From Escherichia phage RB49, in the sequence record NC_005066.1: DNA of 64,000 nucleotides; one strand, given 5' to 3'. A program made the position numbers and the translations under genes. Positions 10,996-32,282 of the stretch are shown here, in pieces. The first letter of the stretch is position 1. Each line of letters starts with the position of its first letter. The notes beneath the pieces are model-generated. The model saw only the letters and a list, made by a program, of their open reading frames with translations, was not told the origin of the DNA and ran no database searches.

Positions 10996-11474
10996 GCTAA
11001 ATCATTGCAATATTTTAGTGCCTTAGTTTGAAATTCTGCGCTGTTAAGTTCTTCATAACGGTCATAATCACCGTTTAATGCTGCCTTTCTTGCTTCTTGC
11101 TCTATCTGCATGTCAGACATGATAATACAGCGATCCCGCGCTTTCATCTTCTCAAGTTGTATAGACTCTTCTTTCTGCTTGCGCAATTCTTCTTGACGCT
11201 TCTTTTCTTCTTGTGCTTTCTCTTCCCGCGCTTCTTTGATTGCATCCTTGAACATCTGCGTTTGTGGTGCTAAACCAACTTTAACTCGATCTACGTCTCG
11301 ACGTTCCATTTTAGAAATAAAGCATGATTCGATCTGATCATCACTTGCATATGCTGCTTTACATTCACGAAGCAAGAAAACCGGATCTGATTTAGCATTC
11401 ATCATAGCTTCCATGTTGGCACAACCAGTAAGCATGAATACAGCCGCAAGACCAATCAGTTTAATCATTTTCAT
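10989..11474 (-). CDS. putative lipoprotein with coiled-coil region
   Basis: Signal peptide with lipobox LTGC; KR/E-rich coiled-coil segment. Confidence 0.6.
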   Translation of the reverse strand: MKMIKLIGLAAVFMLTGCANMEAMMNAKSDPVFLLRECKAAYASDDQIESCFISKMERRDVDRVKVGLAPQTQMFKDAIKEAREEKAQEEKKRQEELRKQKEESIQLEKMKARDRCIIMSDMQIEQEARKAALNGDYDRYEELNSAEFQTKALKYCNDLAK

Positions 11475-12295: not shown

Positions 12296-12372
12296 TTTAA
12301 ACCTCCCATATAACAGAAAACGGGGCTAGTATAAAACTAGTCCCCGTTTGAGTCAACCATTATTTCTTAAAA

Positions 12373-14424
12373 TTACATTTTAAATTTATCTGGCATTGCG
12401 TCTACAGATACCAGATCAGCGATAAGCTGACGTAGAGTTGCCTTATCTGCTTTCTTACGTTCGGTTTTAGCTTCGCTAATGAAGCTGGAGAAAGACAGGT
12501 CAGAAGCAGGTTTAACAACACCTTCACGGATGAATGCATCACCGTCCGCGATCATCTCGCCAGATTCTTGTAATGCTGCCAGTTCATTTTTGTTCATAAT
12601 ATGTGCCTCAATGTAATAAGTTTCTTGTGAATCCGTCGATGCCGTAGCACGAGTTACCGTATCAAAGGATAACACAACACCGCGAGGAAGTAAAATCTCG
12701 CATTCTTTGTAAGCAAATGCTTTGTTACCTACTGGCAAGACAGGGATGTTTTCCGCGCCAGCAATGGAGAAAGCAACATTGGCGCCACCTTCACCGCGAG
12801 AGCCAGCCATAGAATCAACACCAGCAACGGCACTAGCCACGTTTGCATTCCAGCCGCCAAAAATGTTAGGTGCAAGGGAAGTGCTCACATAGTTTTTAAA
12901 GTAAAACGCTTTTTGCTTACGTGCAGTTTCCCACATTTGCGACCGGAAGTCCATACCACGATACAGAATAGTACCCGGATCAAGTTTAACGCCATAGTTG
13001 GAGAAGGCATTATCCAGTGCATCGCACATCTTGACCAATTCTTCTGGATCTGATATGCCTTCAAACTCTTCCAGCTTGCGGTCGGTTAGGAAGTTGTTCA
13101 TATTGATGTATGCTGCATCGGCATATTCGCTCAACACAAAACCTTCCGCGCCTGGCAGATCAAGATCAATATCTGCCATCATTTCACCCATGTTGCTAGC
13201 AATTGCTTCAAACATACCGGAAGCAACATTACGTAGGGCATCGGTTTTAATCTGGGTGATATGACTACGCAGCATTTCAGCTTTTACATCTGCTGGCATA
13301 GACTGGTCTACTCGATCCATTGCCAGGGCGGTGATCTTGTTTTCGAATACTTCCTCGCTCATGATTTCTTTTAAGCGTTTGACCGAGGCTGCGATAACTT
13401 CCGCAGACAACGGATCATATTGATCCTGAACTTTTACCAGTTCGCTTACTGCGTATTTTGCATCGGCTTCGCTTTCAAAAATAGTACGCATGAAACCATA
13501 GCGAGTGATAATATCACTTGTCCAGTCATTCAGAGAACGGGCGGTTGAACGTTCTAAGGCTTGACGGTCAATCAGAGTATTAAACTGTTTCTTAGGTTCG
13601 GCTTCGGTGATATCTTCTTCCGGTTTAAGATTAATTTTTTCTGGATGATTCACATAGTCGCTGTTATAGGTCGCTTGAGTTTTCAGCATTTCTTCTTTAG
13701 TCAAACGAGATTTAGCCGCTACGCGTTGTTCTGCTTCCGCGTTTCGTTCTTCTTCTGACACAAGACTAGCCGCATACGCTTCATCTTTAGTCAGAGATTC
13801 ACCAGTAGCCTTAGATACCCAGCGATCACCTAAATCACTTTCTACTTTAGTGAACAAGGATTCATCAAGTTTAATCCCTTTAATCTTATCAATCGCCATC
13901 CCGCGACGCTTGACAACAACTAAAGCGATCTTTTTGCTGGTCATTACTTCCTGCTGGAATACTTCAAACTTCGGTGTACGACGCACCAAACGCTCTATAA
14001 CGCGCTTAACCAGTTCGGTCTTACCTTTCATGCGGGATACGTTAAAACGGAACATAACAGCGTCTAATTGCGATTTACGGGCTGTTTCCATAACCACATC
14101 AAAAGCACTTGCCATGACTGCAATCGGGTTATCGCCTAGACCATTTTTAAGCTGTACAATACGACCGCTTTTGTTCATTTCGCACAGTACAACATGTGCG
14201 GTCTTGTCACCCATACGAATGATTTTAGGTGTTTTGTTGGTGAAGTTACAAAGACGGACAATCACATCTTTATCGCGTGTCTGTACTGCAAAAAGCTGTT
14301 TAGGATTCTGCTTAGGCTTTAAGCACTGTACCGGAGCAATACTGCCAAAGTTTTCTTCCTCTTCCGTCAACAGCCATTTCTCGAAAGATTCAATCATTAG
14401 ATCGTCGATTTCTAAGTTAAACAT
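12373..14424 (-). CDS. alt: Alt RNA polymerase ADP-ribosyltransferase
   Basis: 683 aa (T4 Alt 682); YRGMDF, FKNYVSTSLAPNIFGGW, ECEILLPRG. Confidence 0.9.
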   Translation of the reverse strand: MFNLEIDDLMIESFEKWLLTEEEENFGSIAPVQCLKPKQNPKQLFAVQTRDKDVIVRLCNFTNKTPKIIRMGDKTAHVVLCEMNKSGRIVQLKNGLGDNPIAVMASAFDVVMETARKSQLDAVMFRFNVSRMKGKTELVKRVIERLVRRTPKFEVFQQEVMTSKKIALVVVKRRGMAIDKIKGIKLDESLFTKVESDLGDRWVSKATGESLTKDEAYAASLVSEEERNAEAEQRVAAKSRLTKEEMLKTQATYNSDYVNHPEKINLKPEEDITEAEPKKQFNTLIDRQALERSTARSLNDWTSDIITRYGFMRTIFESEADAKYAVSELVKVQDQYDPLSAEVIAASVKRLKEIMSEEVFENKITALAMDRVDQSMPADVKAEMLRSHITQIKTDALRNVASGMFEAIASNMGEMMADIDLDLPGAEGFVLSEYADAAYINMNNFLTDRKLEEFEGISDPEELVKMCDALDNAFSNYGVKLDPGTILYRGMDFRSQMWETARKQKAFYFKNYVSTSLAPNIFGGWNANVASAVAGVDSMAGSRGEGGANVAFSIAGAENIPVLPVGNKAFAYKECEILLPRGVVLSFDTVTRATASTDSQETYYIEAHIMNKNELAALQESGEMIADGDAFIREGVVKPASDLSFSSFISEAKTERKKADKATLRQLIADLVSVDAMPDKFKM

Positions 14425-14465: not shown

Positions 14466-14490
14466 AAAAGGGGGCTTAACGCCCCCTTTA
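14466..14490. terminator. hairpin terminator between small early gene and alt
   Basis: AAGGGGGC-ttaac-GCCCCCTT with flanking T/A runs. Confidence 0.5.
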
Positions 14491-14703
14491 TTATAATGCA
14501 CCATCGAGCAATTGCTCTAAGGTGTATCCTGAATAGTCTTTTTCAATCAGGGTATATTTTCCTACTCGTTTAATCCAGCCACGCATTTCAACGTATTCTG
14601 CGTAGTTGATGGTGCGAGTTGTTCCATCTTCTAGCAAAGCAGTACCGATTTCGTTAATGCGGTCATAAGTTACGTCGGTAATGATGATTTCGATGTTAGC
14701 CAT
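14491..14703 (-). CDS. small early protein (70 aa)
   Basis: Track ORF preceded by PeSL cassette with GGAG RBS. Confidence 0.6.
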   Translation of the reverse strand: MANIEIIITDVTYDRINEIGTALLEDGTTRTINYAEYVEMRGWIKRVGKYTLIEKDYSGYTLEQLLDGAL

Positions 14704-14774
14704 TTGATACTCCTTAGTAGTTCGTTTCGGTATGGGTGTATTATGATATACACCCTCTGTTATGTCAACAACTT
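14704..14774 (-). promoter_or_regulatory. PeSL-like early promoter cassette (-35 TTGACA, -10, 5' UTR with SD)
   Basis: Conserved tcgtttcggtatgggtgtattat...tgtcaacaactttt (plus-strand reading). Confidence 0.65.
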
Positions 14775-14954
14775 TTAGAACATTTTTGAAATTAATTCTG
14801 CTTTGATTTCGCAGAGAACATCTAAAGATTTCTCGTCACCTGCTTTTGCGGCTTCTGTTTGCATTTTTGAAATGGCTTCAATGTCAGTGCAATTATAAGC
14901 CGCTTGAACTTTAGCGATTGCGATGATTGCCGATTCGATGGTTAAGTGTTTCAT
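14775..14954 (-). CDS. small early protein (59 aa)
   Basis: Hand-translated ORF MKHLTIESAIIAIAKVQAAYNCTD... below track cutoff; preceded by PeSL. Confidence 0.5.
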   Translation of the reverse strand: MKHLTIESAIIAIAKVQAAYNCTDIEAISKMQTEAAKAGDEKSLDVLCEIKAELISKMF

Positions 14955-15022
14955 GTTTGATTCTCCTTTCGTTTCGGTATGGGTGCATTATAGGGGATCG
15001 GTGACCCCCTGTCAACAACTTT
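14955..15022 (-). promoter_or_regulatory. PeSL-like early promoter cassette with stem-loop
   Basis: gattctcc...gtttcggtatgggtgcattat AGGGGATCGGTGACCCCCT gtcaacaactttt. Confidence 0.65.
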
Positions 15023-15541
15023 TTAGTTATTTTTTAATTGTTCATCTTGCAATAATGCAATCACATGCTGGCGATGTTCTTCCGATTGAGACACACCGAA
15101 AAAGTTTGTTTTGTAGAAATACTCTAATCGGTCTTCTCGTGTGCTCTCTTCCATCATGATCGCGGGTAGTCCGAGATTTCGGAAACGTCGCTTTTCTGCT
15201 GGCGTAAAATCACTGTAATACAACATAGAATCATCATTACAAGCAATGCTAAACTCATCCTTCATAAAGGAGAATATTGCGTTTAAACGCTGTTTACCGT
15301 CCACGATTTCGATCTCATAGCGAGAGCCATCATCAATCTTAGCCATTGCGATAGCACCAACCGGAAAATCATTAATCAGGTTTTCGATAAACATACGTTT
15401 GTTTTCGGTGTCCCATACTAAAGGACGCTGATAATCTGGGTTCATGTTGATATAGCCATCTTCTAACCATGCTTCATAAACAGAGATAACAAAGTTTTTA
15501 GTATTGGTATAGTAACGGCGTTTAGGCGTTAAACGGTTCAT
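15023..15541 (-). CDS. DUF262 (ParB-like nuclease/NTPase domain) protein
   Basis: Motifs PDYQRPLVW, FPVGAIAM, VDGKQRLNAI; start placed at ATG with AGGAG RBS (track ORF begins at upstream TTG). Confidence 0.7.
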   Translation of the reverse strand: MNRLTPKRRYYTNTKNFVISVYEAWLEDGYINMNPDYQRPLVWDTENKRMFIENLINDFPVGAIAMAKIDDGSRYEIEIVDGKQRLNAIFSFMKDEFSIACNDDSMLYYSDFTPAEKRRFRNLGLPAIMMEESTREDRLEYFYKTNFFGVSQSEEHRQHVIALLQDEQLKNN

Positions 15542-15542
15542 G

Positions 15543-15872
15543 TTATAGTCTCCTGAATGGATCATCACGTAAATCAATATCTTTTAAGAACTCATCCCAT
15601 GAATGGCGGATATTGTTCTTAATTCTCCAGATAAGAGCAGGGATTGAACGCTCTCCCATCTGGAAGTATGGATCATATGATCCGTATGCCCAATATGCTA
15701 CTACAATTCCACAATCAGCGCAATAGTATTCTATTTCACTTGCTGGCGACCAAAGTCCATCAATATGATCGGTGATCTTGCTTTCGATGTTATGGCTATG
15801 ACAATCAGGGCAACGGATGCAATGACCTTGTTTATCGTAATTTGACGTTAGCGAATACTTAAACAATCTCAT
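15543..15872 (-). CDS. Zn-ribbon protein (109 aa)
   Basis: CIRCPDCHSH ... CADCG cysteine pairs; TAATG overlap with upstream gene. Confidence 0.6.
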   Translation of the reverse strand: MRLFKYSLTSNYDKQGHCIRCPDCHSHNIESKITDHIDGLWSPASEIEYYCADCGIVVAYWAYGSYDPYFQMGERSIPALIWRIKNNIRHSWDEFLKDIDLRDDPFRRL

Positions 15873-16588
15873 TATAGATCCTTATTTGCTTCAAATACTG
15901 CCTTTGCGAATCCTCGCGGGGTAAGTGACCTGATAGTCTTTGTTTTCGTTCCTTTCCCGCCTAGCTTAGAATGCTGTTTACTGTACCCTTTATTAATCTG
16001 CAAAGGTTTCTTTTCTGGCATTATAAAGCCTTGTCCGGTCCATAAGCAAGTCTTTTTCGGGTACATATCACGGGCGGCAATATACTCAGGAAAAGTAGGA
16101 TGTTTATCATCTTCCGGCAAATAACCGCCATATTCCCACGGATGGAACATATAATCAGGCTTACGCCACATGCTAGAGATAACGCTTACAGGATTCTCTA
16201 TCATGTAGGGAACTCCTATCCATTCACCCAAATAAGCGGTTATTTTAGCTGCCCTTACATCATGAACTTGAATCAATGGTCCTTGTTCTAGTTTCTTTCG
16301 TTCAAAGTGCGCAGCGCCACTAACAGCTAAATTGGTGCACGGTGGGAATGCAAAGATAATATCCGGTTTCCCCCATTCAAGGTCCATTGCTCTTTCCAGC
16401 CAGTTCAAATCAATCCAGGTGTTTACATAGGTAATGTTTGGATGTTCAAATCTGGTATTATATTTTTTGTATGTACCGTGGTCGCCATCGTCAGCATTAA
16501 AGCAGATCACCTTATGACCCGCTTTAGCCCATTCTAACCCCATTATCCCCGACCCGTCAAAGTTGCAGAATATTAATTTTTGTTTCAT
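15872..16588 (-). CDS. C5-cytosine DNA methyltransferase-like protein (238 aa, short)
   Basis: Motif I-like FCNFDGSGIMG..AG, motif IV-like FAFPPCTNLAVSGA, motif VI-like MIENPV. Confidence 0.55.
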   Translation of the reverse strand: MKQKLIFCNFDGSGIMGLEWAKAGHKVICFNADDGDHGTYKKYNTRFEHPNITYVNTWIDLNWLERAMDLEWGKPDIIFAFPPCTNLAVSGAAHFERKKLEQGPLIQVHDVRAAKITAYLGEWIGVPYMIENPVSVISSMWRKPDYMFHPWEYGGYLPEDDKHPTFPEYIAARDMYPKKTCLWTGQGFIMPEKKPLQINKGYSKQHSKLGGKGTKTKTIRSLTPRGFAKAVFEANKDL

Positions 16589-16830
16589 ATACGCCCCTTT
16601 AATCCAACACAGATTTTAGAAGGTTCTTTGCCGTGCCACATTAAGTAAAGTCCGTTAATGCGGCCTTGTTTTGTATATGATTCTTTTCTGATCTTCTTAT
16701 AGTGTCGTGTTTCCTCTACCGATTGTTTAGAATACCAATCATAAAGGAAGAGGAACAAAGGCCAACCATTAGCAACCTTAATGCAGTTATTCAAAAATTC
16801 CTTATTTCGTTTAATTAATTTTCTTTTCAC
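16585..16830 (-). CDS. small basic protein (81 aa), GTG start overlapping upstream stop
   Basis: Track ORF, 4-nt overlaps on both sides. Confidence 0.5.
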   Translation of the reverse strand: MKRKLIKRNKEFLNNCIKVANGWPLFLFLYDWYSKQSVEETRHYKKIRKESYTKQGRINGLYLMWHGKEPSKICVGLKGRI

Positions 16831-17078
16831 GCTGCCCCCATTGGTTTGATAGTAACAGAATCTAAAAGACCTTTGTTAGCCAGTTCGCGGCAAGTTTTCA
16901 GATCCGCAACTTCCCAGCCAGCCGCAATCAGGTTATCAATGAGGCTGTTAGCAACTTCTTCGCTCATGAAAGAGCACTGTTTGCCGATGGTGTAGCGTAC
17001 ACGCTGTAATTTCAGTTTACGGAAGCCTTTAACGTTCAGGTCTTTAGCGATTTTCTTTGCGGTTTCGATGTTAGCCAT
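16827..17078 (-). CDS. small protein (83 aa), first gene of 5-gene operon
   Basis: Track ORF, ATG preceded by PeSL with GGAG RBS. Confidence 0.6.
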   Translation of the reverse strand: MANIETAKKIAKDLNVKGFRKLKLQRVRYTIGKQCSFMSEEVANSLIDNLIAAGWEVADLKTCRELANKGLLDSVTIKPMGAA

Positions 17079-17158
17079 TGTTTGATTCTCCTAAGTGGTA
17101 TCTCGTCTTGATGGTTGTATTGTAGGGGAGTTATCCTCCCCTGTCAACACTTTTTATA
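17079..17158 (-). promoter_or_regulatory. PeSL-like early promoter cassette
   Basis: gattctcctaagtggtatctcgtcttgatgg...GGGGAGttatcCTCCCC tgtcaacac. Confidence 0.65.
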
Positions 17159-17161
17159 AAA

Positions 17162-17329
17162 TTATTTGTTAATTTCTGGTGCGTTGCTAGGATAGTAACC
17201 TTCTTTAACTCCGAGGTATTTCGCAACCATCCCTACAATCTTCTGTGCTACTACAATGTCAAATTTCAGATAATCTTCGCCGTGGGTTTCAACGATATAT
17301 GCTTCACATGCTGCTTTAGTCTCGAACAT
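17162..17329 (-). CDS. small protein (55 aa), paralog of 21488..21655
   Basis: MFETKAACEAYIVETHGEDYLKFDIVVAQKIVGMVAKYLGVKEGYYPSNAPEINK; ~85-90% nt identity to second copy. Confidence 0.65.
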   Translation of the reverse strand: MFETKAACEAYIVETHGEDYLKFDIVVAQKIVGMVAKYLGVKEGYYPSNAPEINK

Positions 17330-17400
17330 TTTGATTCTCCTATTTCGTTTCGGTATGTGTGTATTATAGGGGATCTCCCGATCCCCGTCAACAACTTTTT
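17330..17400 (-). promoter_or_regulatory. PeSL-like early promoter cassette
   Basis: ttgattctcc...tcgtttcggtatgtgtgtattat AGGGGATCtcccGATCCCC gtcaacaactttttt. Confidence 0.65.
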
Positions 17401-17404
17401 TAGA

Positions 17405-17881
17405 TTATTTGCACCACACTGTAATTTTCTTATCATGTTGGTAGTGAATCCATCGAATATCATCTTTATCAATCATGACAGTAACATACCCATTTACTAG
17501 TGATTTGTCAAAACGGTTATGTAACAGTGCAATATATTGAAAGAATGGTTCTTTTGTATTTGAATATATTCCCTTACCATCAAACGTCATGACATTTTTG
17601 TGAACTTTAAATTCATTACGAAGAACAGCCGTCATTGTCCCGTCTTCATTAGTTTTGAGTTTTAATTCGGATTCTTTGTAAAAATATGCGTCACGGGCTT
17701 TACTTTCTTCCCCGTCTTGTACTCTTACTTCACTAGCATAATCACACTGATAGGTCTTATCTACATTTTCGATCTTTTCTTGTGTCATATCAAAAAGCGG
17801 TGCGACCTTTTTCTTGGCCGCGTGTGCTACGTTGGTCATGGACAGTGCTGCAACAACCGCAATAGCAATAATCTTCTTCAT
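17405..17881 (-). CDS. secreted protein (158 aa) with signal peptide
   Basis: N-terminal MKKIIAIAVVAALSMTNVAHA signal sequence. Confidence 0.6.
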   Translation of the reverse strand: MKKIIAIAVVAALSMTNVAHAAKKKVAPLFDMTQEKIENVDKTYQCDYASEVRVQDGEESKARDAYFYKESELKLKTNEDGTMTAVLRNEFKVHKNVMTFDGKGIYSNTKEPFFQYIALLHNRFDKSLVNGYVTVMIDKDDIRWIHYQHDKKITVWCK

Positions 17882-17946
17882 AGTATTCTCCTTTTGTTTT
17901 GTGTTGGGAGTATCTTAGCGACACTCCCGTTATTTTTCAAATCTTT
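17882..17946 (-). promoter_or_regulatory. PeSL-like variant (stem-loop GGGAGTATCTTAGCGACACTCCC, no canonical TTGACA)
   Basis: SD-complement ggagaata plus hairpin in intergenic region. Confidence 0.35.
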
Positions 17947-18228
17947 TTATTCGTGATTAGTTTCGATGTTGTGCATTTTGCACCAGTTCAACCAATCGCC
18001 CAGATCTTGATAGTTGATGCTTTTATCTGCTGCCATCGTTTTTGTCTTGATACCCATATGTGCGTTATGAGTAAGCATTTTTACAGTGAACTCAATTTTA
18101 TCACCTTTAGCTTTAACATCAACCAGTTTGGTCCACTGGCTACCAGCGCCGCGAATGTTCATACCAACGATGTTTCCGATGTATGCTTCTTTGTTTTTCA
18201 GGATTTCGGTTGCTTTGATGAATTTCAT
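17947..18228 (-). CDS. small protein (93 aa)
   Basis: Track ORF preceded by PeSL. Confidence 0.55.
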   Translation of the reverse strand: MKFIKATEILKNKEAYIGNIVGMNIRGAGSQWTKLVDVKAKGDKIEFTVKMLTHNAHMGIKTKTMAADKSINYQDLGDWLNWCKMHNIETNHE

Positions 18229-18297
18229 TTTTGATTCTCCAGTTCGTTTCGGTATGGGTGTATTATGCTATGTTCTTACTTTGGTGTCAACAACTTT
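18229..18297 (-). promoter_or_regulatory. PeSL-like early promoter cassette
   Basis: tttgattctcc...gtttcggtatgggtgtattat...gtgtcaacaactttttt. Confidence 0.65.
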
Positions 18298-18567
18298 TTA
18301 GATATTTTCAGAAATAAATTTTAAAACTTGACGTAAATGTTTCTCATCTTTGATAGTCGCCGGAAGTTCTTCTTTTACTTCCTGTGCAAGATAGATATTT
18401 CCGTTCCAAGTGAAAGATCCGTCTTCGTTTACGCGATAGCTGAACATCCACTCGCAATCATTTTCGATTTCATATACACACAGAAGGGTGTAATCGTTAA
18501 AGCTAGTGATTTCAAGGTCGAAGCCGTGACGTTTTGCAAAGTTGGTAGTGGTTTTAGTCAGTGCCAT
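18298..18567 (-). CDS. small protein (89 aa)
   Basis: Track ORF preceded by PeSL. Confidence 0.55.
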   Translation of the reverse strand: MALTKTTTNFAKRHGFDLEITSFNDYTLLCVYEIENDCEWMFSYRVNEDGSFTWNGNIYLAQEVKEELPATIKDEKHLRQVLKFISENI

Positions 18568-18650
18568 TGTTTGATTCTCCTAAGTGGTATCTCGTCTTGA
18601 TGGGTGTATTATGCTATAGTCGTGATCTGGTGTCAACAACTTTTTTAAAT
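18568..18650 (-). promoter_or_regulatory. PeSL-like early promoter cassette
   Basis: Shares 31-nt gattctcctaagtggtatctcgtcttgatgg with cassette at 17079; tgtcaacaactttttt. Confidence 0.65.
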
Positions 18651-18658
18651 TTTTGGAA

Positions 18659-18689
18659 ATAAAAAAGCCGACACTAAGGTCGGCACATT
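18659..18689 (-). terminator. intrinsic terminator
   Basis: GCCGAC-actaag-GTCGGC hairpin; T6 on minus strand. Confidence 0.7.
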
Positions 18690-19001
18690 TTAAAAATTCT
18701 TGCTATATATGCAAGCCTCATAATCTAGAGGATGACCGCCAATCCTACCAGGCTTAATATTCCAACCGCATCGATATTTTCTGACCATGCTAACCGTTTC
18801 GGTTCTTAGAGCATTTCTTTGCAAATCATACCCCCTAAATTCTTGTCTATAAGGACAGTCCGCTTTGCAAGTTGGCGGTTCTACGTCATTTAGCGGGTCG
18901 GAAGCAGTTGGCTTTATTATCAATTCTTTGTTTGCAATAATCATAAGCACATCCCATTGAAGACAATTTAACATCTTCGCAATAAGTGTTGAATCCGTCA
19001 A
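18690..19001 (-). CDS. Cys-rich protein; overlaps upstream ORF by 116 nt, probably starts at internal ATG or is joined by frameshift
   Basis: Track ORF begins at TTG; internal ATGs at ~18974 and ~18944. Confidence 0.35.
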   Translation of the reverse strand: MTDSTLIAKMLNCLQWDVLMIIANKELIIKPTASDPLNDVEPPTCKADCPYRQEFRGYDLQRNALRTETVSMVRKYRCGWNIKPGRIGGHPLDYEACIYSKNF

Positions 19002-19077
19002 ATACGATCACTTCGTATTTGACTCCATCAGCGATAGCTTTTACTTTATACCATCCATGCTTGTATAAAATCTTCAT
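18886..19077 (-). CDS. small Cys-rich protein (63 aa)
   Basis: ATG with GAGGAAA RBS directly after PeSL. Confidence 0.5.
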   Translation of the reverse strand: MKILYKHGWYKVKAIADGVKYEVIVFDGFNTYCEDVKLSSMGCAYDYCKQRIDNKANCFRPAK

Positions 19078-19150
19078 CTTTATTTCCTCAATCTCGTTTC
19101 GATGGGTGTATTATGCTATAGGCTAGACCAGGTTGTCAACAACTTTTTTA
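19078..19150 (-). promoter_or_regulatory. PeSL-like early promoter cassette
   Basis: tcgtttcgatgggtgtattatgctat...ttgtcaacaactttttta. Confidence 0.65.
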
Positions 19151-19162
19151 ATTTTTTGGGAA

Positions 19163-19190
19163 ATAAAAAAGCCGACGCTAAGGTCGGCTA
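19163..19190 (-). terminator. intrinsic terminator
   Basis: GCCGACgctaagGTCGGC hairpin with T7 on minus strand. Confidence 0.7.
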
Positions 19191-19196
19191 ATAAAA

Positions 19197-19505
19197 TCAT
19201 TTGGACAAATAATCATTCTGTGCAATCCGGTCGGCGTATGCTGGTGTTATGTCAATCGCCAGCACTTTAACGCGTGCTTTCTTGCGACCTGGGTTTTCTC
19301 GTAACCAGTGCTCATGACCGTGAACATTTTTATACTTTGATGCTTCTTCAAATGTACGGATCGGACCTGGGTAATCAGCGTAAAGGATCTCTAGGTCTTC
19401 GGTGATGTAAAAATATACATCGTAATTACTGTTCTCTAGTTTAAGCAGAGAGTTGCGAAATTGTGGTAAATTCTCGCGGGTAAATTCAACTACAAGATTT
19501 TTCAT
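19197..19505 (-). CDS. H-x-H-W family small protein (member 1)
   Basis: HGHEHW ... VLAIDI motif shared with five neighbouring ORFs. Confidence 0.6.
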   Translation of the reverse strand: MKNLVVEFTRENLPQFRNSLLKLENSNYDVYFYITEDLEILYADYPGPIRTFEEASKYKNVHGHEHWLRENPGRKKARVKVLAIDITPAYADRIAQNDYLSK

Positions 19506-19529
19506 AGTGATATCCTCATTCAGATAGAT

Positions 19530-19552
19530 TAAAAGGGGCTTAACGCCCCCCG
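19530..19552 (-). terminator. intrinsic terminator
   Basis: GGGGC-ttaac-GCCCC hairpin followed by T4 on minus strand. Confidence 0.5.
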
Positions 19553-19556
19553 TATA

Positions 19557-19844
19557 TTAAAACAGTCCTTCCTGTACACCGTAGTAGAGTTCGTCACTGA
19601 TAATTTCATTAATGCGACGGTGTGCATATTCCTGATTTGCGAAGTTATCAGCAAGTTCTACTTTAGTTTCGCCGTCATGAGTCCATTTAGTGATAACTTT
19701 ACCATCTGCAAATTTGAAGTTGAACTCTTTAGCTACTGCATCGCGTACCAGACGTGCGAACTTGTTGTTACGGATGGCATTATCGGTTTCGTGTGCAGCG
19801 TGAGCGAATTTGTTAACTTTCAGAGTGATAGTAATGTATGCCAT
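19557..19844 (-). CDS. small protein (95 aa)
   Basis: Track ORF preceded by PeSL. Confidence 0.55.
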   Translation of the reverse strand: MAYITITLKVNKFAHAAHETDNAIRNNKFARLVRDAVAKEFNFKFADGKVITKWTHDGETKVELADNFANQEYAHRRINEIISDELYYGVQEGLF

Positions 19845-19925
19845 AATTTGATTCTCCTAGTTAGAAAGTGTATCTCGTTTCGATGGGGATATTATGCTAT
19901 ATCCCCGATCCGGTGTCAACACTTT
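19845..19925 (-). promoter_or_regulatory. PeSL-like early promoter cassette
   Basis: aatttgattctcc...tcgtttcgatggggatattat...GGGGATattatgctatATCCCC...gtgtcaacac. Confidence 0.65.
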
Positions 19926-20219
19926 TTATAAAATAATTTTTTGATATTTTTCTATGATGTTTGTGTAGGTCACGTCAACCGCTAGCACCGTTGCTTCGAA
20001 TCCACCGTTTAGCCAATGGCTATGATCATGATCGTGAAAGAAACCTAGACCAGTACGAAGACCTTCTTTATATTCTGCGCGTACATTCAGTTTGTCGTCG
20101 ATAAACAGATAAAACCATGAATTTTTACTAGGATTGATGATACAACCTTTCAGATTAGGAAGAATATCACGACTAAGAATAAACTTATCACCTACTTTGA
20201 ACATAATATTAGTCCTCAC
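19926..20219 (-). CDS. H-x-H-W family small protein (member 2)
   Basis: HDHDHSHW ... VLAVDV. Confidence 0.6.
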   Translation of the reverse strand: MRTNIMFKVGDKFILSRDILPNLKGCIINPSKNSWFYLFIDDKLNVRAEYKEGLRTGLGFFHDHDHSHWLNGGFEATVLAVDVTYTNIIEKYQKIIL

Positions 20220-20529
20220 TTATAAGGTCAAACCAATTGTTTTTCGCATAATGCTTAATGCGTGCTTGATCTGCTTCCGCTGGTGATAGATTCCATGCAA
20301 CCACTACAACTTCTGACGCATCGTCATCCGTTTCTGATACCCAATGATTGTGATTCATACAGTTATTTGCTATCGAGTGAGCAAATGATTTCATCACTGG
20401 AGACGTATAATCATAGTAACGGATTTTCAGATTTTCATCAACGTACAAGTAGATCGTATACGGCTTATATTCAGTAACCAGTAACAGACAGTTACGCAAT
20501 TCTGGGAAAATCTTTTTAGTTAATTTCAT
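20209..20529 (-). CDS. H-x-H-W family small protein (member 3)
   Basis: NHNHW motif; N-terminus parallels member 1; start at ATG with GAGGA RBS. Confidence 0.55.
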   Translation of the reverse strand: MKLTKKIFPELRNCLLLVTEYKPYTIYLYVDENLKIRYYDYTSPVMKSFAHSIANNCMNHNHWVSETDDDASEVVVVAWNLSPAEADQARIKHYAKNNWFDLISED

Positions 20530-20530
20530 T

Positions 20531-20749
20531 TTATAATCCTCGGTCTCGGCTATAGTACACGGTACGCCATACAATTTCATGTTTCGTGTCGCTCCAGCAC
20601 ACGATCTCATTTACTCTTAAATCTTTGTTATCAACAAAAGATGAACATTGTGACGCTTCTTTCATCATTTTATCTGCTGTTTTCTCATCAAATACAGCAC
20701 AGATTTCTTTATACACTCGATAATCTTTGAATTGACTCTGAATACCCAT
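20531..20749 (-). CDS. small protein, tandem paralog A (KMMKEASQC motif)
   Basis: FKDYRVYKEI...KMMKEASQCSSF parallels next ORF; start moved to internal ATG. Confidence 0.5.
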   Translation of the reverse strand: MGIQSQFKDYRVYKEICAVFDEKTADKMMKEASQCSSFVDNKDLRVNEIVCWSDTKHEIVWRTVYYSRDRGL

Positions 20750-20972
20750 AATTAACACCATTCCAACCAATTGTTTTTGAGAAAACGTTTATCCACTGTT
20801 GAGTGTAGCATGTTTCTTTCCATGATACAATACGAGTGGAATAATGGTTTTTGTTTCCAGAAAAGGACGGGCATTTTGATGCATCTTCCATCATCTTTTC
20901 GGCGAACTCTGGTGCGTATACTCGCAGGATCTGTTGATATGCTTTGTATTCTTTAAATTTGCTCATAATCAT
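20709..20972 (-). CDS. small protein, tandem paralog B (KMMEDASKC motif)
   Basis: KFKEYKAYQQIL...KMMEDASKCPSF. Confidence 0.5.
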   Translation of the reverse strand: MIMSKFKEYKAYQQILRVYAPEFAEKMMEDASKCPSFSGNKNHYSTRIVSWKETCYTQQWINVFSKTIGWNGVNYGYSESIQRLSSV

Positions 20973-21231
20973 TCACTACCTTATCAGCTTCTTTTGTTGT
21001 TTTTACATCAACTGCGATAACTCGTAAAGGTTCGTCATGGTTCCACCAGTGGTCATGAATATCAGCTTGTGATTTATCACCAAAGGAATCACGAATATCA
21101 TTTTTACATTTATAGCTAATGTGACCTTCATAGTCAACATAAAGGTAATTATCGAAAATCGGCGTTTTTAAGATCATACCGAAAAATCTTTCTTTGTGTG
21201 TCTTATCCAGCGTTGCAGTAATTCGCATCAT
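20953..21231 (-). CDS. H-x-H-W family small protein (member 4)
   Basis: DIHDHWW ... VIAVDV. Confidence 0.6.
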   Translation of the reverse strand: MMRITATLDKTHKERFFGMILKTPIFDNYLYVDYEGHISYKCKNDIRDSFGDKSQADIHDHWWNHDEPLRVIAVDVKTTKEADKVVNDYEQI

Positions 21232-21243
21232 AATATATTCCTC

Positions 21244-21423
21244 TTAGAAAGGGATGGTCATTTCTTGAGCTTGTACATTCTCGTTAGGATTAAACTTCAT
21301 CCAGCCGATATTGTCTACCAGCATATGCACATTTTTATCATATCCTACGTGAGTAGTCAACACTAAATGTGCTTTACCTTCAATGATGAGTTCCATGTAC
21401 TTCTGAACTTCGATAGCTTTCAT
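21244..21423 (-). CDS. small protein (59 aa)
   Basis: Hand-found ORF MKAIEVQKYMELIIEGKAHLVL... directly after PeSL. Confidence 0.5.
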   Translation of the reverse strand: MKAIEVQKYMELIIEGKAHLVLTTHVGYDKNVHMLVDNIGWMKFNPNENVQAQEMTIPF

Positions 21424-21487
21424 TTTGATTCTCCGTTTGTTGTCTTGATGGGAGTATCTTACTACTCCATTTAATCATTGTCAACTA
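21424..21487 (-). promoter_or_regulatory. PeSL-like early promoter cassette
   Basis: gattctccgtttgttgtcttgatgGGAGTAtcttacTACTCC...ttgtcaactat. Confidence 0.6.
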
Positions 21488-21655
21488 TTATTTGTTAATT
21501 TCTGGTGCGTTGCTCGGATAGTAACCTTCTTTAACACCTAGATATTTTGCAACCATTCCGGTGATCTTCTGTGCTACTACGATATCGAATTTCAGGTAGT
21601 CTTCACCGTGGTTTGCTACAATGTATGCTTCGCATTCTGCTTTAGTCTGGAACAT
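21488..21655 (-). CDS. small protein (55 aa), paralog of 17162..17329
   Basis: MFQTKAECEAYIVANHGEDYLKFDIVVAQKITGMVAKYLGVKEGYYPSNAPEINK; track ORF is extended into the PeSL. Confidence 0.65.
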   Translation of the reverse strand: MFQTKAECEAYIVANHGEDYLKFDIVVAQKITGMVAKYLGVKEGYYPSNAPEINK

Positions 21656-21723
21656 TTTTGATTCTCCTATATCTCGTTGGTATGTGTGCATTATAGGGGA
21701 TCACCGATCCCCTGTCAACAACT
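21656..21723 (-). promoter_or_regulatory. PeSL-like early promoter cassette
   Basis: tttgattctcc...AGGGGATCaccGATCCCCT gtcaacaacttt. Confidence 0.65.
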
Positions 21724-22017
21724 TTATAATGCTTTATATGCGTATTTCATAAATTTGTCTGCCACTTCATTGGCATGTTCAGATTCTACGCCTGATTCGA
21801 GAACAATAGCTAGGTCGGTTTCGTCATTCCCGCCGTACCAATGATTTGATGTTCGATTTTTTTCAATTGGAAATTGGTCACTTTTATCTGTGCGACAAAA
21901 TACATCTAAATGCTCGTCGATGTAAAAGATCCAATCTTCATAAAGAATAACGGTATTAGCAAGATTTTTATTGCCTTCAACGAAAGGTTCCGCGACAAAT
22001 AGCTTAGTTTGTTCCAT
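21724..22017 (-). CDS. H-x-H-W family small protein (member 5, divergent)
   Basis: NHWYGG...AIVLESG; start at ATG with GAGGAAA RBS. Confidence 0.5.
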   Translation of the reverse strand: MEQTKLFVAEPFVEGNKNLANTVILYEDWIFYIDEHLDVFCRTDKSDQFPIEKNRTSNHWYGGNDETDLAIVLESGVESEHANEVADKFMKYAYKAL

Positions 22018-22033
22018 AGTAATTTCCTCAAAA

Positions 22034-22225
22034 TTATACAGTTTCGTAAACTTCCCAATGTTCAGCGCCAACACGCTTAACGAAAAGGTTTTCTTTGATG
22101 TTATTCATAAACGTCTGGATGGATTTAATGCGGTTTGAAGGTTTCCATTCTTCGTTGGCATTGCGTCGATACATCATAACATTACCAGTTCGCTTATATT
22201 CAGCAACCATTTTAAGACCACACAT
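22034..22225 (-). CDS. small protein (63 aa)
   Basis: Track ORF, GAGGA RBS. Confidence 0.5.
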   Translation of the reverse strand: MCGLKMVAEYKRTGNVMMYRRNANEEWKPSNRIKSIQTFMNNIKENLFVKRVGAEHWEVYETV

Positions 22226-22282
22226 AATATTATCCTCAATTTGTGGGAGAGTATTACCCCTCCCAATGATTGTTATGTTATA

Positions 22283-22603
22283 TCACACAAAATGGCGTGT
22301 CAATGCTTCTTTTGCGGTTCCGCTAAGACTTTCAATCTCGCCTGGCATAACATCAACCGCCAGAACTTCTACAACATCCTCGGACCCTAACCAGTGAGTA
22401 TGGCCTTTGTAGAACTTGATAACCAGACCACCTTCCTCGTCCCATTTAACGCTATCGCTAGCCCACCACACATCACCGTCGATAAAGTTGATGTAAAGCA
22501 CACTACGCCACATTGAATTAATTACTTTCAATACTGCGCCTTTCATCTCTTCCACGGTATGGTCTTCCATTTTGAAGACCTCACCTACCTGAACTTTTGC
22601 CAT
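22283..22603 (-). CDS. H-x-H-W family small protein (member 6)
   Basis: GHTHWLGSEDVVEVLAVDV. Confidence 0.6.
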   Translation of the reverse strand: MAKVQVGEVFKMEDHTVEEMKGAVLKVINSMWRSVLYINFIDGDVWWASDSVKWDEEGGLVIKFYKGHTHWLGSEDVVEVLAVDVMPGEIESLSGTAKEALTRHFV

Positions 22604-22620
22604 TTAGTCACCTCTCTTTA

Positions 22621-22800
22621 TTACATAACAATCACGCCAGCCGTTGAAAGTTGATGTTTCAACTGAGCATTTTCTGCTACCGTCAAATCAATGATTTCTT
22701 GTGACGCTGCAATCATATAGCCATTGGTGATATTGTTTTGCATCAGTTCAATGGTTTCTTCGTTGTAGCGGATTTTAGCGATGATTTCGTTGAAGTTCAT
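22621..22800 (-). CDS. small protein (59 aa)
   Basis: MNFNEIIAKIRYNEE...; track ORF is extended into the PeSL. Confidence 0.55.
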   Translation of the reverse strand: MNFNEIIAKIRYNEETIELMQNNITNGYMIAASQEIIDLTVAENAQLKHQLSTAGVIVM

Positions 22801-22872
22801 AATTGATTCTCCTAGTTCGTTTCGGTATGTGTGTAGTATAGGGGATCGGTGATCCCCTGTCAACAACTTTTT
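22801..22872 (-). promoter_or_regulatory. PeSL-like early promoter cassette
   Basis: aattgattctcc...tcgtttcggtatgtgtgtagtat AGGGGATCggtGATCCCCT gtcaacaactttttt. Confidence 0.65.
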
Positions 22873-23202
22873 TTAAAGTTTTTCCATGATAACGGTCATA
22901 ATTACATCTTCTGCGCGAGCTGTCAGATTATCAGCGTCAGCATGTGGGCGGTTGGTTGTTACAGAGATAACACCGTTGCGCACTGGTTTGATATTGATAT
23001 CAAGATGATCCGCGAAACGTTCGTGATCCGCGAAACGTTCGCCAGTTACAGAATGAATTTTGGTGTTAAATTCTTTTGCCAGTGCCTTGCGAACTTCACG
23101 AATCAGGATAGCGTTTTTCAGTTGGTTCTCCGCGCTCATGGTCTTCTGGGTGTTCATGGTTCCGTCGAAGTCAATCATTGGCAGCGTTACGATGTATTTC
23201 AT
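22873..23202 (-). CDS. small protein (109 aa) containing in-frame duplication ERFADH-ERFADH
   Basis: Track ORF preceded by PeSL. Confidence 0.55.
   Translation of the reverse strand: MKYIVTLPMIDFDGTMNTQKTMSAENQLKNAILIREVRKALAKEFNTKIHSVTGERFADHERFADHLDINIKPVRNGVISVTTNRPHADADNLTARAEDVIMTVIMEKL
23007..23042. repeat. 18-bp perfect-to-near-perfect tandem duplication inside coding sequence
   Basis: gatccgcgaaacgttcgt / gatccgcgaaacgttcgc, adjacent. Confidence 0.8.
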
Positions 23203-23285
23203 TTTTGATTCTCCGTTTAAGAAAGTGTGTTTCGTTTTGATGTGTGTAGTATAGGGGATACGTGATCCCCTGTCAACAACTTTTT
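23203..23285 (-). promoter_or_regulatory. PeSL-like early promoter cassette
   Basis: ttttgattctcc...AGGGGATacgtGATCCCCT gtcaacaacttttttg. Confidence 0.65.
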
Positions 23286-23289
23286 TGAA

Positions 23290-23634
23290 TTATTTTTTCA
23301 TGAGCTTAATGGCTTCTTCCATAGCCAGCACATTTCGATAGTTAGGGTATCGTGTTAGATCGTCATACATTCGCTTAAGGGTGGAAACTTCCTCAAACTC
23401 TGGGTTTTCTAGATACAGTTGAACAAATTGTTTCTCTACCATCTCTGCTTTTAGCTTGTCTGCTTGTTCCTGTTCATATGATTTAGTTGGACCCAACACC
23501 AACAAAATGATAAAGGTGATCAACGGGCTAATGATCAACGATAGGAGAACATAACCGATAACGCTACGGTTTAAACGGCTTGCGTACATGCCTACTAGGA
23601 AAACAAAAAGGATATAGATAAACAGAAAGAACAT
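23290..23634 (-). CDS. small membrane protein (114 aa, two predicted TM helices)
   Basis: Hydrophobic N-terminal half MFFLFIYILFVFLVG...LLSLIISPLITFIILLVLG. Confidence 0.55.
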   Translation of the reverse strand: MFFLFIYILFVFLVGMYASRLNRSVIGYVLLSLIISPLITFIILLVLGPTKSYEQEQADKLKAEMVEKQFVQLYLENPEFEEVSTLKRMYDDLTRYPNYRNVLAMEEAIKLMKK

Positions 23635-23641
23635 ATAATGG

Positions 23642-24115
23642 TTACTCCTTATTTTCTCGCTCGTACTTTTCGAAATAAAATTCTACTGGCTGGTCATGAA
23701 TTGACAGCAAGCCAAAGCGTTTAGCCGCTCGCAATCCCATATTGCGCTGAATGTACTTCTGGAAGTTCTCGCGTATACACTTACGCCAGTATTCTAAGCC
23801 CATACAGCTTTTATAAAGATTGCATTGCACACACGCCGGATTCATGTTATCAAGTATATCATGTTCCGGTTTATGCATTCCTACAACCTTATACTTCCAC
23901 GATCCATCATCATTACGGGCAATTCGTCCATTTTCATCATAGACTACCTTTGAGCGTCGCAATACTGGTTTGATGTGGTCTGCGTGCCAGCGATCCCCTA
24001 GTTCCTCGCCACAATAGGCACAACGTCCACCATATTTCATTTTCAGGATCTGGCGTTGCTCTTTCTTTGACAATTTTTTAGGTTTAGGGGCTTTCGCCCC
24101 TTCATTATCACACAT
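23642..24115 (-). CDS. HNH endonuclease (157 aa)
   Basis: CAYCGEELGDRWHADHIKP ... NMNPACVQCN: CxxC-HxDH-N-CxxC HNH signature; overlaps 3' end of ligase gene. Confidence 0.75.
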   Translation of the reverse strand: MCDNEGAKAPKPKKLSKKEQRQILKMKYGGRCAYCGEELGDRWHADHIKPVLRRSKVVYDENGRIARNDDGSWKYKVVGMHKPEHDILDNMNPACVQCNLYKSCMGLEYWRKCIRENFQKYIQRNMGLRAAKRFGLLSIHDQPVEFYFEKYERENKE

Positions 24116-31420: not shown

Positions 31421-31490
31421 CTTGATACTCCTTAGTTGTTTTGGTATGGGAGTATCTTACTACTCCCGTGATATGCTGTCAACTGCTTTT
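31421..31490 (-). promoter_or_regulatory. PeSL-like early promoter cassette
   Basis: cttgatactcc...GGGAGTAtcttacTACTCCC...gctgtcaactgctttttt. Confidence 0.6.
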
Positions 31491-31640
31491 TTATGCAACC
31501 GCAAACATCAACATTTGAACATTCTTGGCTGTCTGGCTTTCAAAGTTCTGACATTCTTTGATAATGTCCTCTACTTTCTCGCCGGAGATCTCCGCGTAAG
31601 TTTCGATTGCCATTTTCAGTACCGCGTCAAAGTTGTTCAT
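31491..31640 (-). CDS. small protein (49 aa)
   Basis: Hand-found ORF MNNFDAVLKMAIETYAEISGEKVEDIIKECQNF... flanked by PeSLs. Confidence 0.45.
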   Translation of the reverse strand: MNNFDAVLKMAIETYAEISGEKVEDIIKECQNFESQTAKNVQMLMFAVA

Positions 31641-31707
31641 TTGATTCTCCTTAAAGTGTATTTCGTTTCGATGGGGGTATATTACTACCCCCGTTTCATG
31701 CTGTCAA
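31641..31707 (-). promoter_or_regulatory. PeSL-like early promoter cassette
   Basis: ttgattctcc...GGGGGTAtattacTACCCCC...gctgtcaactacttttt. Confidence 0.6.
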
Positions 31708-32272: not shown

Positions 32273-32282
32273 AATAACAAAA

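Follow-up and report, generated by a model that had tools for sequence, protein, structure and literature searches.

Repeated early-promoter cassettes and module exchange in the small-gene block between alt and gene 30 of Escherichia phage RB49

Introduction

Promoter-early stem-loops (PeSLs) were defined in phages RB49 and phi1, at ~52 per genome (Arbiol, Comeau, Kutateladze, Adamia, Krisch 2010, Genome Biol Evol 2:140; PMC2839356). Each combines a sigma-70 consensus promoter with an upstream AT-rich tract, a stem-loop in one of five positional subclasses, and a Shine-Dalgarno (SD) sequence with a start codon. The stem-loop, often polyG...polyC, lies between the promoter boxes, overlaps the -35 or the -10 box, or is located in the upstream AT-rich region or downstream of -10. 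PeSLs are concentrated in hyperplastic regions upstream of orphan genes. With lacZ fusions, promoter activity was found for PeSL206/205 and terminator-like activity for the stem-loop of PeSL211/210. Recombination between PeSLs was proposed by the same authors, and excised mini-circles were sequenced for ORF192 and ORF210 of RB49/phi1, with crossovers between -10 and ATG, or in or near the stem-loop (PMC2839356). The mapped 5' ends of early transcripts are consistent with the early promoter consensus of RB49 (Nolan et al. 2006; PMC1524935), and the PeSL concept has been extended to T4/PST and KVP40/nt-1 (Comeau, Arbiol, Krisch 2014; PMC4122927). Here we analyze repeats of this kind in a 64,000-nucleotide (nt) stretch of Escherichia phage RB49 (NC_005066.1; hereafter the window), in particular a minus-strand block of small genes between an Alt-like gene and the DNA ligase gene, gene 30.

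We conclude, at a probability of roughly 90%, that these repeats are PeSL early-promoter cassettes of Krischvirus in the hyperplastic region between alt and gene 30, and that the gene modules they delimit are shuffled by recombination between cassettes. The element is already known, in the same lineage and at the same locus (Arbiol et al. 2010, PMC2839356). The experimentally tested PeSL193/192, 206/205, and 211/210 lie in the same hyperplastic region as our block (PMC2839356); judging by gene order, the cassettes at 21653-21732 and 23200-23292 are probably the orthologues of PeSL206/205 and PeSL211/210. Our additions are incremental: the two-genome model is extended to 12 genomes, internal hairpins and upstream terminators are found to be complementary in their occurrence, hairpins are found to be maintained by compensatory change, and one deletion has recurred independently.

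Results

A long conserved cassette recurs on the minus strand

When all GTTGAC sites were extracted from the window, 23 proved to share a long common context. The MAFFT consensus of these copies is aAAaAgttGTTGACA-N17-tAtaATACaCcCAT-(ac)CgAaACgA...GgAGAATcAAa-ATG. From 5' to 3', a copy runs from an A-tract into the -35 (TTGACA) and, after a spacer of 17-18 nt, into a -10 resembling TATAAT; the discriminator ACAcCC, a leader rich in A, GGAGAATC, and ATG complete it. The A-tract (aAAaAg) abuts GTTGACA on its 5' side in nearly all aligned copies, providing the AT-rich tract of a PeSL, and discriminator, leader, and SD are conserved besides the promoter boxes. The copies align far beyond the SD, in keeping with a sequence-only reading of this DNA that had proposed PeSL-like cassettes here.

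All 23 strong copies are on the minus strand, 12 in the block and 11 elsewhere in the window. A profile hidden Markov model (HMM) scored the 12 copies within 14703-23292 at 39.9-61.3 bits and the other 11 at 35-54 bits. Scores fell from at least 35 bits for strong copies straight to 8.6 bits for the next best, a degenerate copy in the block; since the model was built from the same 23 aligned copies that were then scored, this gap shows the absence of further copies and is not independent support. The strong copies are distributed over four clusters and single positions, and the block holds 13 copies, the degenerate one included, within 8.6 kb. The sequence-only reading had counted at least 13 copies in the block, which is what we recover with the degenerate copy at 17882-17946. 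Its 12 or more copies elsewhere come down to 11 strong ones, beside which there are weaker, promoter-only relatives of the cassette, e.g., at 12323-12370, 27769, and 41990.

A search for AAAAGTTGTTGACA at up to three mismatches gave 35 matches, 29 of them on the minus strand, against 13.3 +/- 3.7 in dinucleotide shuffles. If a near-consensus sigma-70 site is defined by agreement at 11 or more of the 12 hexamer positions, the whole window has 31 on its minus strand and one on its plus strand (first-order Markov simulations: mean 2.3, maximum 5); the block itself has 11 and none, respectively. Eleven of the 12 strong block cassettes reach this level, with a 17-18 bp spacer, and the cassette at 21423-21498 matches 10 positions. 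Only this class of sites is informative, as a scan of the window at 9 or more of 12 positions gave 48 sites against 40.7 +/- 6.4 expected, which is not above chance. Promoter-like sites outside the cassettes are also strongly strand-biased across the window (15 minus, 1 plus). Six near-consensus TTGACA-16/18-TATAAT-like sites lie within 2.2 kb at 42762-44906 (minus strand), without the conserved PeSL leader, and several of them are apparently inside coding sequence.

Downstream of the promoter, a CAT located 7 nt after -10 is invariant. The leaders are 18-40 nt long (50% A, 15% U), and an SD of the form GGAG (19/23) or GAGG stands 6-9 nt before ATG in all 23 copies, as expected of a PeSL. On the other side, stop codons are found 5-70 nt upstream. 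Leader variants are discrete and mosaic, being common to cassettes with different spacers: the copies at 17148 and 18637 have a 34-nt leader in common, and those at 19920, 23277, and 31708 have ACACTTT in common. Such mosaicism points to exchange inside cassettes.

Most cassettes contain a hairpin, and most of the others follow a terminator

The strong copies fall into three classes. In class A (8 copies), a 7-8 bp hairpin fills the spacer, with arms GGGGATC-NNN-GATCCCC, GGGGAG/CTCCCC, or GCGGGGA/TCCCCGC and a closing A-T pair formed by the last base of TTGACA and the first of TATAAT. In class B (8 copies), a 6-9 bp hairpin carries the -10 hexamer in its loop; its 3' arm is the discriminator, ATAC(N)CCC, and its 5' arm co-varies (GGGTGTAT, GGGGATAT, GGGAGTA, GGGGGTA). 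Class C comprises the 7 copies without an internal hairpin. Palindromes had been assigned to the spacer by the sequence-only reading; this is right for class A, and wrong for GGGAGTA..TACTCCC, which spans the -10 with the discriminator as its 3' arm.

The block consists of 13 modules (A-M), in a minus-strand gene model, separated by the 12 strong cassettes. The cassettes are listed below with the genes that they drive, from the alt side to the ligase side (bits, profile score; kcal/mol and z, fold). The flanking genes named by the sequence-only reading, alt and DNA ligase, are both supported by Pfam matches.

12373-14424, minus strand: Alt-like RNA polymerase ADP-ribosyltransferase gene, 683 amino acids (aa) (PF03496, E=1.8e-9; annotated Alt in MIZ6, phi1, and kvi); downstream block boundary.
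14466-14490, minus strand: canonical terminator GGGGGCGTTAAGCCCCC followed by TTTT, between the 70-aa gene and alt, identified from sequence and annotated as a terminator in TB34 and G37-3.
14703-14784, minus strand: cassette 1, class B, GGGTGTAT/ATACACCC spanning a CATAAT -10 (47.0 bits; -12.1 kcal/mol, z=-3.55); drives the 70-aa gene 14491-14703 (phi1 ORF185 orthologue), then come the terminator 14466-14490 and alt.
14952-15030, minus strand: cassette 2, class A, GGGGGTC-ACC-GATCCCC, TTGACA-17-TATAAT (57.4 bits; -12.2 kcal/mol, z=-1.59); drives the 59-aa gene 14775-14954 (module B, ORF186).
17077-17164, minus strand: cassette 3, class A, GGGGAG-GATAA-CTCCCC (50.2 bits; -13.6 kcal/mol, z=-3.66); drives five genes in 15023-17078, including those for a DNA methyltransferase (15872-16588) and a GmrSD_N/DUF262 protein (15023-15541) (Pfam, PHROG).
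17329-17407, minus strand: cassette 4, class A, GGGGATC-GGGA-GATCCCC (55.1 bits; -13.9 kcal/mol, z=-3.50); drives the 55-aa gene 17162-17329 (module D, ORF191).
17882-17946, minus strand: degenerate 13th cassette, TTGAAA (17940-17935), 17-nt spacer, TAAGAT (17917-17912), hairpin GGGAGT/ACTCCC, GGAGAA as SD (promoter 9/12; leader-only nhmmer 8.6 bits); drives the 158-aa secreted orphan gene 17405-17881 (the "ORF192 slot").
18226-18305, minus strand: cassette 5, class C, lacking both a hairpin and an upstream terminator (50.5 bits; fold 0 kcal/mol); drives the 93-aa gene 17947-18228 (ORF193).
18566-18652, minus strand: cassette 6, class C, with canonical terminator 18667-18684 (GCCGACCTTAGTGTCGGC followed by T6) directly upstream (58.5 bits); drives the 89-aa gene 18298-18567 (ORF194).
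19075-19153, minus strand: cassette 7, class C, with canonical terminator 19170-19189 directly upstream (47.9 bits); drives module G (63-aa gene 18886-19077).
19846-19935, minus strand: cassette 8, class B, GGGGATAT/ATATCCCC spanning CATAAT (55.8 bits; -12.4 kcal/mol, z=-2.35); drives 95-aa and 102-aa genes (module H) with terminator 19534-19551 between the two.
21423-21498, minus strand: cassette 9, class B, GGAGTA/TACTCC spanning TAAGAT (39.9 bits; -7.9 kcal/mol, z=-2.70); drives five genes in 19926-21423 (module I).
21653-21732, minus strand: cassette 10, class A, GGGGATC-GGT-GATCCCC, perfect TTGACA-17-TATAAT (51.1 bits; -12.8 kcal/mol); drives the 55-aa gene 21488-21655 (module J, ORF205, a module D paralogue).
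22798-22879, minus strand: cassette 11, class A, GGGGATC-ACC-GATCCCC (61.3 bits; -12.8 kcal/mol, z=-4.77); drives four genes in 21724-22800 (module K, ORF206-209).
23200-23292, minus strand: cassette 12, class A, GGGGAT-CACGT-ATCCCC (56.2 bits; -10.1 kcal/mol, z=-2.68); drives the 109-aa gene 22873-23202 (module L, ORF210).
23290-23634, minus strand: 114-aa gene, the variable "ORF211 slot," with indel breakpoints at 23297 and 23655, one end being the upstream edge of cassette 12.
23642-24115, minus strand: HNH endonuclease gene, 157 aa, adjoining the ORF211 slot (PF01844; annotated HNH endonuclease in relatives).
24108-25604, minus strand: gp30 ATP-dependent DNA ligase gene (PF01068, E=2.8e-22; phi1p213 is annotated gp30); upstream block boundary.

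Each cassette thus serves one to five genes, a somewhat wider range than the one to a few small open reading frames (ORFs) given by the sequence-only reading. That reading's remark that ORF calls extend artefactually into the cassettes holds: mechanical calls start at the TTG in AAGTTGTTGACA. One of them, 22621-22866 (81 aa), is longer than the real gene, which occupies 22621-22800 (59 aa) and has its ATG after GGAGAATC. For the window, the cassettes are mainly an annotation aid, fixing the true starts of ~13 small genes and defining 13 exchangeable modules.

The 11 strong copies elsewhere are as follows.

31421-32282, minus strand: four-cassette cluster (31421-31495, 31640-31723, and 31926-31999, class B; 32197-32282, class C with upstream terminator).
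34469-34546, minus strand: isolated class A cassette, GCGGGGA-GAAA-TCCCCGC (36.6 bits; -15.1 kcal/mol, z=-5.26).
39331-39409 and 40836-40911, minus strand: two class C cassettes, the second with upstream terminator GCCTCCCTTCGGGGAGGC followed by T6.
58663-59752, minus strand: four-cassette cluster (58663-58741, B; 58891-58967, A; 59174-59251, B; 59675-59752, C with upstream terminator).

One of the weaker relatives, at 12323-12370 (minus strand), lies directly downstream of the alt stop codon. It has a promoter-like TTGACT-17-TATACT and a strong hairpin, AAACGGGGACTAG...CTAGCCCCGTTT (-18.3 kcal/mol), that covers spacer and -10 and is followed by a T-run and by the GGGAGG-ATG of the next gene. 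By its sequence, this element unites a terminator with a promoter and is a PeSL subclass more extreme than those of the array.

Fold energies of -7.9 to -15.1 kcal/mol (z -1.6 to -5.3) were obtained for 16 of the 23 strong cassettes; the four class C cores that were folded gave ~0 to -2 kcal/mol with z>0. When arms were swapped by halves between copies, the fold became weaker: class A cassettes average -12.9 kcal/mol with their own arms and -11.0 as half-swapped chimeras (permutation p=0.003), and class B -11.8 and -8.9 (p=0.006). More arm pairs are carried by relatives, e.g., GCGGTTAT/ATAACCGC, and loops vary freely. It is the structure that is conserved rather than one particular sequence, the hairpin being kept by compensatory changes.

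A canonical hairpin and T-run terminator stands 15-30 nt upstream of the -35 in 5/7 class C cassettes and in 0/16 hairpin cassettes (Fisher p=6e-4). This complementarity argues that internal hairpin and upstream terminator do the same job. In terms of the PeSL stem-loop, 8 copies have it between the boxes, 8 across the -10, and 5 in the form of the upstream hairpin terminator, leaving 2/23 with none. The canonical form itself was found in the terminators upstream of class C cassettes and in four places in the block (14466-14490, 18667-18684, 19170-19189, and 19534-19551), and not in the class A and B hairpins. The statement of the sequence-only reading that cassettes are often followed by a terminator was hence generous. 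The terminators 14466-14490 and 19534-19551 have GGGGG(G)CGTTAAGCCCC in common, and 18667-18684 and 19170-19189 have GCCGACCTTAG(T/C)GTCGGC in common; the latter pair extends the homology that flanks module G to ~95 bp (terminator and cassette). Rfam models at gathering threshold had no match in the whole window, where no tRNAs were found either.

The palindromes could also be read as operators between -35 and -10, bound by a dimeric repressor that shuts off the early promoters, and not as RNA structures. Perfect 7+3+7 palindromes do sit exactly in the spacer of 8 cassettes, a classic operator position. A repressor would have to recognize at least seven arm sequences, at two positions and in several registers, in which complementarity is kept and loops are free to vary; moreover, the hairpin-less cassettes have an RNA terminator upstream instead. 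Inspection by eye showed that all three internal non-Watson-Crick pairs are G-T on the sense strand, as for RNA, with no A-C, a weak point since three pairs are too few to conclude from. We regard operators as scarcely credible. A variant in which the GATC of GGGGATC...GATCCCC acts as a Dam site was dropped, as GATC shows no depletion in the window (340 vs 331 expected) and no significant enrichment in cassettes (13 vs 9.9).

Module losses in relatives leave single chimeric cassettes

Megablast with the block returned 62 phage records, all from coliphages or phages of close enterobacterial hosts, at 93-97% identity and 50-96% coverage, with 95-97% identity to RB49-species genomes, TB34, MIZ6, and others. 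All matched records that were examined belong, by their classification, to Krischvirus (RB49-like). Module order in the block follows that of phi1 ORF185-ORF212: ORF184 is alt, ORF185-191 are modules A-D, ORF193 and ORF194 are E' and F, ORF197-198 are H, ORF199-204 are I, ORF205 is J, ORF206-209 are K, ORF210 is L, ORF212 is the HNH endonuclease, and ORF213 is the gp30 ligase.

We mapped the modules and cassettes in 11 relatives: the RB49-species record OZ035808, MIZ6, TB34, G37-3, MIZ4, LF73P4, kvi, FL04, Cognac, Brandy, and phi1. For Cognac and FL04, BLAST chaining was confounded by repeats, and the module map was used. Six different whole-module indels were found:

Module B: missing from OZ035808 (RB49-species), G37-3, and Cognac.
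Modules B+C+D: missing from MIZ4.
Module D: missing from Brandy.
Module G: missing from G37-3, LF73P4, kvi, and phi1.
Modules E-J: missing from FL04 and Cognac.
Module L: missing from Brandy.

In each case, cassettes stand at both ends and exactly one cassette is left at the junction. None of the 12 endpoints is more than about 10 bp away from a cassette, and the majority lie inside one; yet cassettes make up just ~11.5% of the block. Three-way alignments showed the junction cassettes to be chimeric: each derives its upstream part from the cassette that precedes the lost module and its downstream part from the one that follows it. The switch between the two is in the leader for the B, B+C+D, and G deletions, in the -10/discriminator for the Brandy D deletion, between A-tract/-35 and loop for the Brandy L and FL04 E-J deletions, and at SD/ATG for the Cognac E-J deletion. 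Because the crossover zones of Cognac and FL04 differ, these phages must have lost E-J independently, i.e., twice. Over 9 junctions, the crossover zones are spread from A-tract to ATG, none being confined to the stem-loop, and each is a stretch that matches both parental cassettes (22-97 bp common to the junction and both parents). The gene-content comparison that the sequence-only reading had called for therefore gives indel boundaries that coincide with cassettes, and the junctions are chimeric as PeSL exchange would have them.

Could the repeats be merely ordinary strong early promoters with ribosome-binding sites, alike through convergent selection, with indels found there through survival of intergenic breakpoints and no causal role? 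The most conserved positions are indeed functional promoter and SD elements, and some indels of the region end at plain gene boundaries without a cassette. Conservation runs on, however, through discriminator and 12-35 nt leader, which a promoter does not need, in the form of discrete mosaic variants. Clean chimeras at the junctions, the 12/12 endpoints, and two independent recombinations of the same cassette pair are also hard to account for by survival of intergenic breakpoints, as are the excised circles with chimeric cassettes sequenced in RB49/phi1 (PMC2839356). Ordinary promoters are, in our opinion, very unlikely to be the whole explanation.

Alternatively, an integron-like, site-specific system could be at work, in which the GGGG...CCCC stem-loop, in the form of a DNA hairpin or cruciform, is recognized by a dedicated phage protein that catalyzes or stimulates exchange; a stem-loop-binding recombination protein was a speculation of Arbiol et al. 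(PMC2839356). G4/C4 runs are ~5-fold enriched in cassettes (25 vs 5.1 expected), the hairpins are kept by compensatory change, an HNH endonuclease gene adjoins one variable slot, and one published RB49 mini-circle crossover was mapped to the hairpin loop (PMC2839356). Exchange at a fixed site is nevertheless not what the scattered crossover zones show, and the module G deletion joined two class C cassettes, which have no internal hairpin. Nor does the change of hairpin position and sequence with class fit a single recognition site well, and a scan of the 10 largest proteins of the block detected neither an integrase nor a recombinase domain. A dedicated system of this kind is highly improbable.

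A weaker form of the idea is that hairpins actively raise recombination at the cassettes without a recombinase, either as DNA hairpin or cruciform or as RNA that pauses polymerase on the next promoter, a structure-stimulated, integron-like capture of genes. One route might be cleavage by a structure-specific or HNH nuclease. We consider such stimulation unlikely. Exchanges also took place between hairpin-less cassettes and at scattered positions. The scattered zones, together with the use of hairpin-less cassettes in the G deletion, favor homology-driven over site-specific exchange between PeSL cassettes.

In LF73P4 (OZ035795), colinearity with the window ends inside cassette 12 (11192-11282, corresponding to window 23200-23292); the 114-aa gene, the HNH gene, and the ligase gene are ~45 kb away on the opposite strand, starting with another copy of cassette 12 (L012 4915-5003). 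This break is either a large cassette-mediated rearrangement or a repeat mis-assembly.

The cargo consists mostly of orphan genes

The cargo genes mostly belong to PHROGs of unknown function or have no match at all, and the cassettes lie in a hyperplastic region directly upstream of such orphan genes, like PeSLs. Modules D (17162-17329) and J (21488-21655) have ~86% DNA identity, each with its own cassette. Phrog_7474 and phrog_9345 account for two genes each; the same-PHROG pairs, in different modules, are 19557-19844/22873-23202 and 19197-19505/20209-20610. Paralogous cargo in different modules indicates probable duplication of modules within the array.

A clear signal peptide (MKKIIAIAVVAALSMTNVAHA/AKKK) marks the N terminus of the 158-aa protein of the ORF192 slot (17405-17881), for which neither Pfam nor PHROG gave a match. 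A homologue, at ~57% amino-acid identity, is encoded in 5 of 50,697 phage records, all five RB49-like Escherichia phages; the only one mapped, that of MIZ6, also occupies this slot, flanked by the orthologues of ORF191 and ORF193. The gene and its degenerate cassette are absent from 9/11 relatives, MIZ6 having a divergent allele, and in FL04, which lacks this stretch, ~1.1 kb of other sequence takes its place. It looks like a rare, fast-evolving secreted cargo gene.

The methyltransferase of module C (15872-16588; 238 aa, phrog_757) is annotated as Dcm/C5-methylase in relatives, and for the 172-aa protein of the same module (15023-15541) the match to GmrSD-type restriction enzymes is confined to their N-terminal domain (DUF262/GmrSD_N). 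CCWGG and GGCC occur across the window at 0.41-0.48 of expectation. The methyltransferase, the DUF262 protein, and site depletion together suggest that module C (15023-16588) may have an anti-restriction or counter-defence theme.

At the ligase end, the 114-aa gene of the ORF211 slot is present in 20 Krischvirus records. The indel of this gene reaches 13 nt into the 3' end of the HNH gene (breakpoint ~23655), and the HNH gene (23642-24115) in turn shares 8 nt with the 3' end of the ligase gene.

Discussion

A model for cassette function and exchange

All sequence-level features of PeSLs are present in these cassettes, including the SD with start codon and the cassette-bounded chimeric indels, and the lineage and locus are those in which PeSLs were originally defined; the identification made by the sequence-only reading stands. 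Our conclusion draws on cassette anatomy, hairpin stability and compensation, hairpin-terminator complementarity, and cassette-bounded chimeric indels observed here, and takes promoter activity, the terminator activity of one stem-loop, and mini-circles from the literature on RB49/phi1 (PMC2839356).

In the model that we favor, the A-rich, UP-like tract and the near-consensus -35/17 bp/-10 promoter would recruit host sigma-70 RNA polymerase straight after infection. Transcription would most likely start at the A of the invariant CAT, 7 nt past -10. The short, A-rich, unstructured leader, ending in GGAG(AATC), should then give efficient translation of one to five small, mostly orphan genes. The GGAG present in nearly all leaders, with the A-rich spacer after it, would also suit a RegB-type endonuclease as a target. 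A divergent RegB has been reported for RB49 (PMC3014915).

The hairpin is upstream of the likely +1 of its own cassette, so it should be present in RNA only on transcripts that enter from the preceding module. There it would most likely act as a terminator, attenuator, or 3'-end hairpin insulating modules from each other, a job that in class C cassettes would usually fall to the canonical terminator just upstream. The cassettes, ~80-100 bp long, would at the same time serve as direct repeats between which the general homologous recombination machinery of the phage presumably exchanges. Such exchange would delete modules and probably also duplicate and insert them, leaving one chimeric cassette and an intact transcription unit.

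Several observations weigh against this account. Two of the 23 cassettes (18226-18305 and 39331-39409) have neither hairpin nor upstream terminator. The internal hairpins are not followed by a U-run (AUAAU/AUACU follows in class A, AUACC/AUCGAAAC in class B), a terminator scan calls none of them on the transcribed strand, and efficient termination by class A and B hairpins is not evident from their sequence. Termination by hairpins is the weakest step of the model: the U-run is missing, and the evidence for terminator activity comes from a single reporter construct, published for a related phage. Some indels involve no cassette, namely +172 bp at 15541 in FL04 and, both in module K of G37-3, the replacement of 22036-22223 and +261 bp at 22606; those of the 158-aa and 114-aa genes touch a strong cassette at one end only. 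Finally, selection for viable genomes would alone enrich intergenic breakpoints.

Few concrete mechanisms have been proposed by which large virulent phages shuffle accessory genes with transcription units left unbroken, and PeSL cassettes are one of these. Such shuffling has a practical bearing on the stability and host-range evolution of therapeutic Krischvirus phages.

Comparison with known systems

Integron gene cassettes, with attC hairpins and IntI, resemble the RB49 array in that small, promoter-served gene cassettes are bounded by hairpin-forming repeats and, according to the RB49/phi1 reports, excised as circles. They differ in that exchange points are here scattered over the repeat and not fixed, each cassette has its own promoter, and the scan of the block's 10 largest proteins turned up no integrase. 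With the "linker" sequences of Botstein and Campbell and the "morons" of Hendrix, the array shares short conserved sequences flanking exchangeable modules and added genes that bring their promoter and terminator with them. For morons, insertion is believed to occur by illegitimate recombination, with no conserved flanks, whereas here a regulatory repeat supplies the homology.

The motifs of T4/PST and KVP40/nt-1 (PMC4122927) are likewise composite repeats of early promoter and stem-loop that mark indel boundaries in hyperplastic regions. According to their authors, they are analogues for which each phage has used its own early-promoter consensus, and in T-evens the stems are weaker and AT-rich; the cassettes described here have the RB49-type TTGACA/TATAAT consensus and GGGG/CCCC stems. 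The PeSLs of RB49/phi1 themselves agree with our cassettes in genus, hyperplastic region, orthologous intergenic positions, composition, and association with orphan genes and indels, and the crossover zones found here match those of the sequenced mini-circles. Nothing essential sets the two apart; the genome studied here differs in its combination of modules, having B and G, a divergent gene in slot 192, and the slot-211 gene together.

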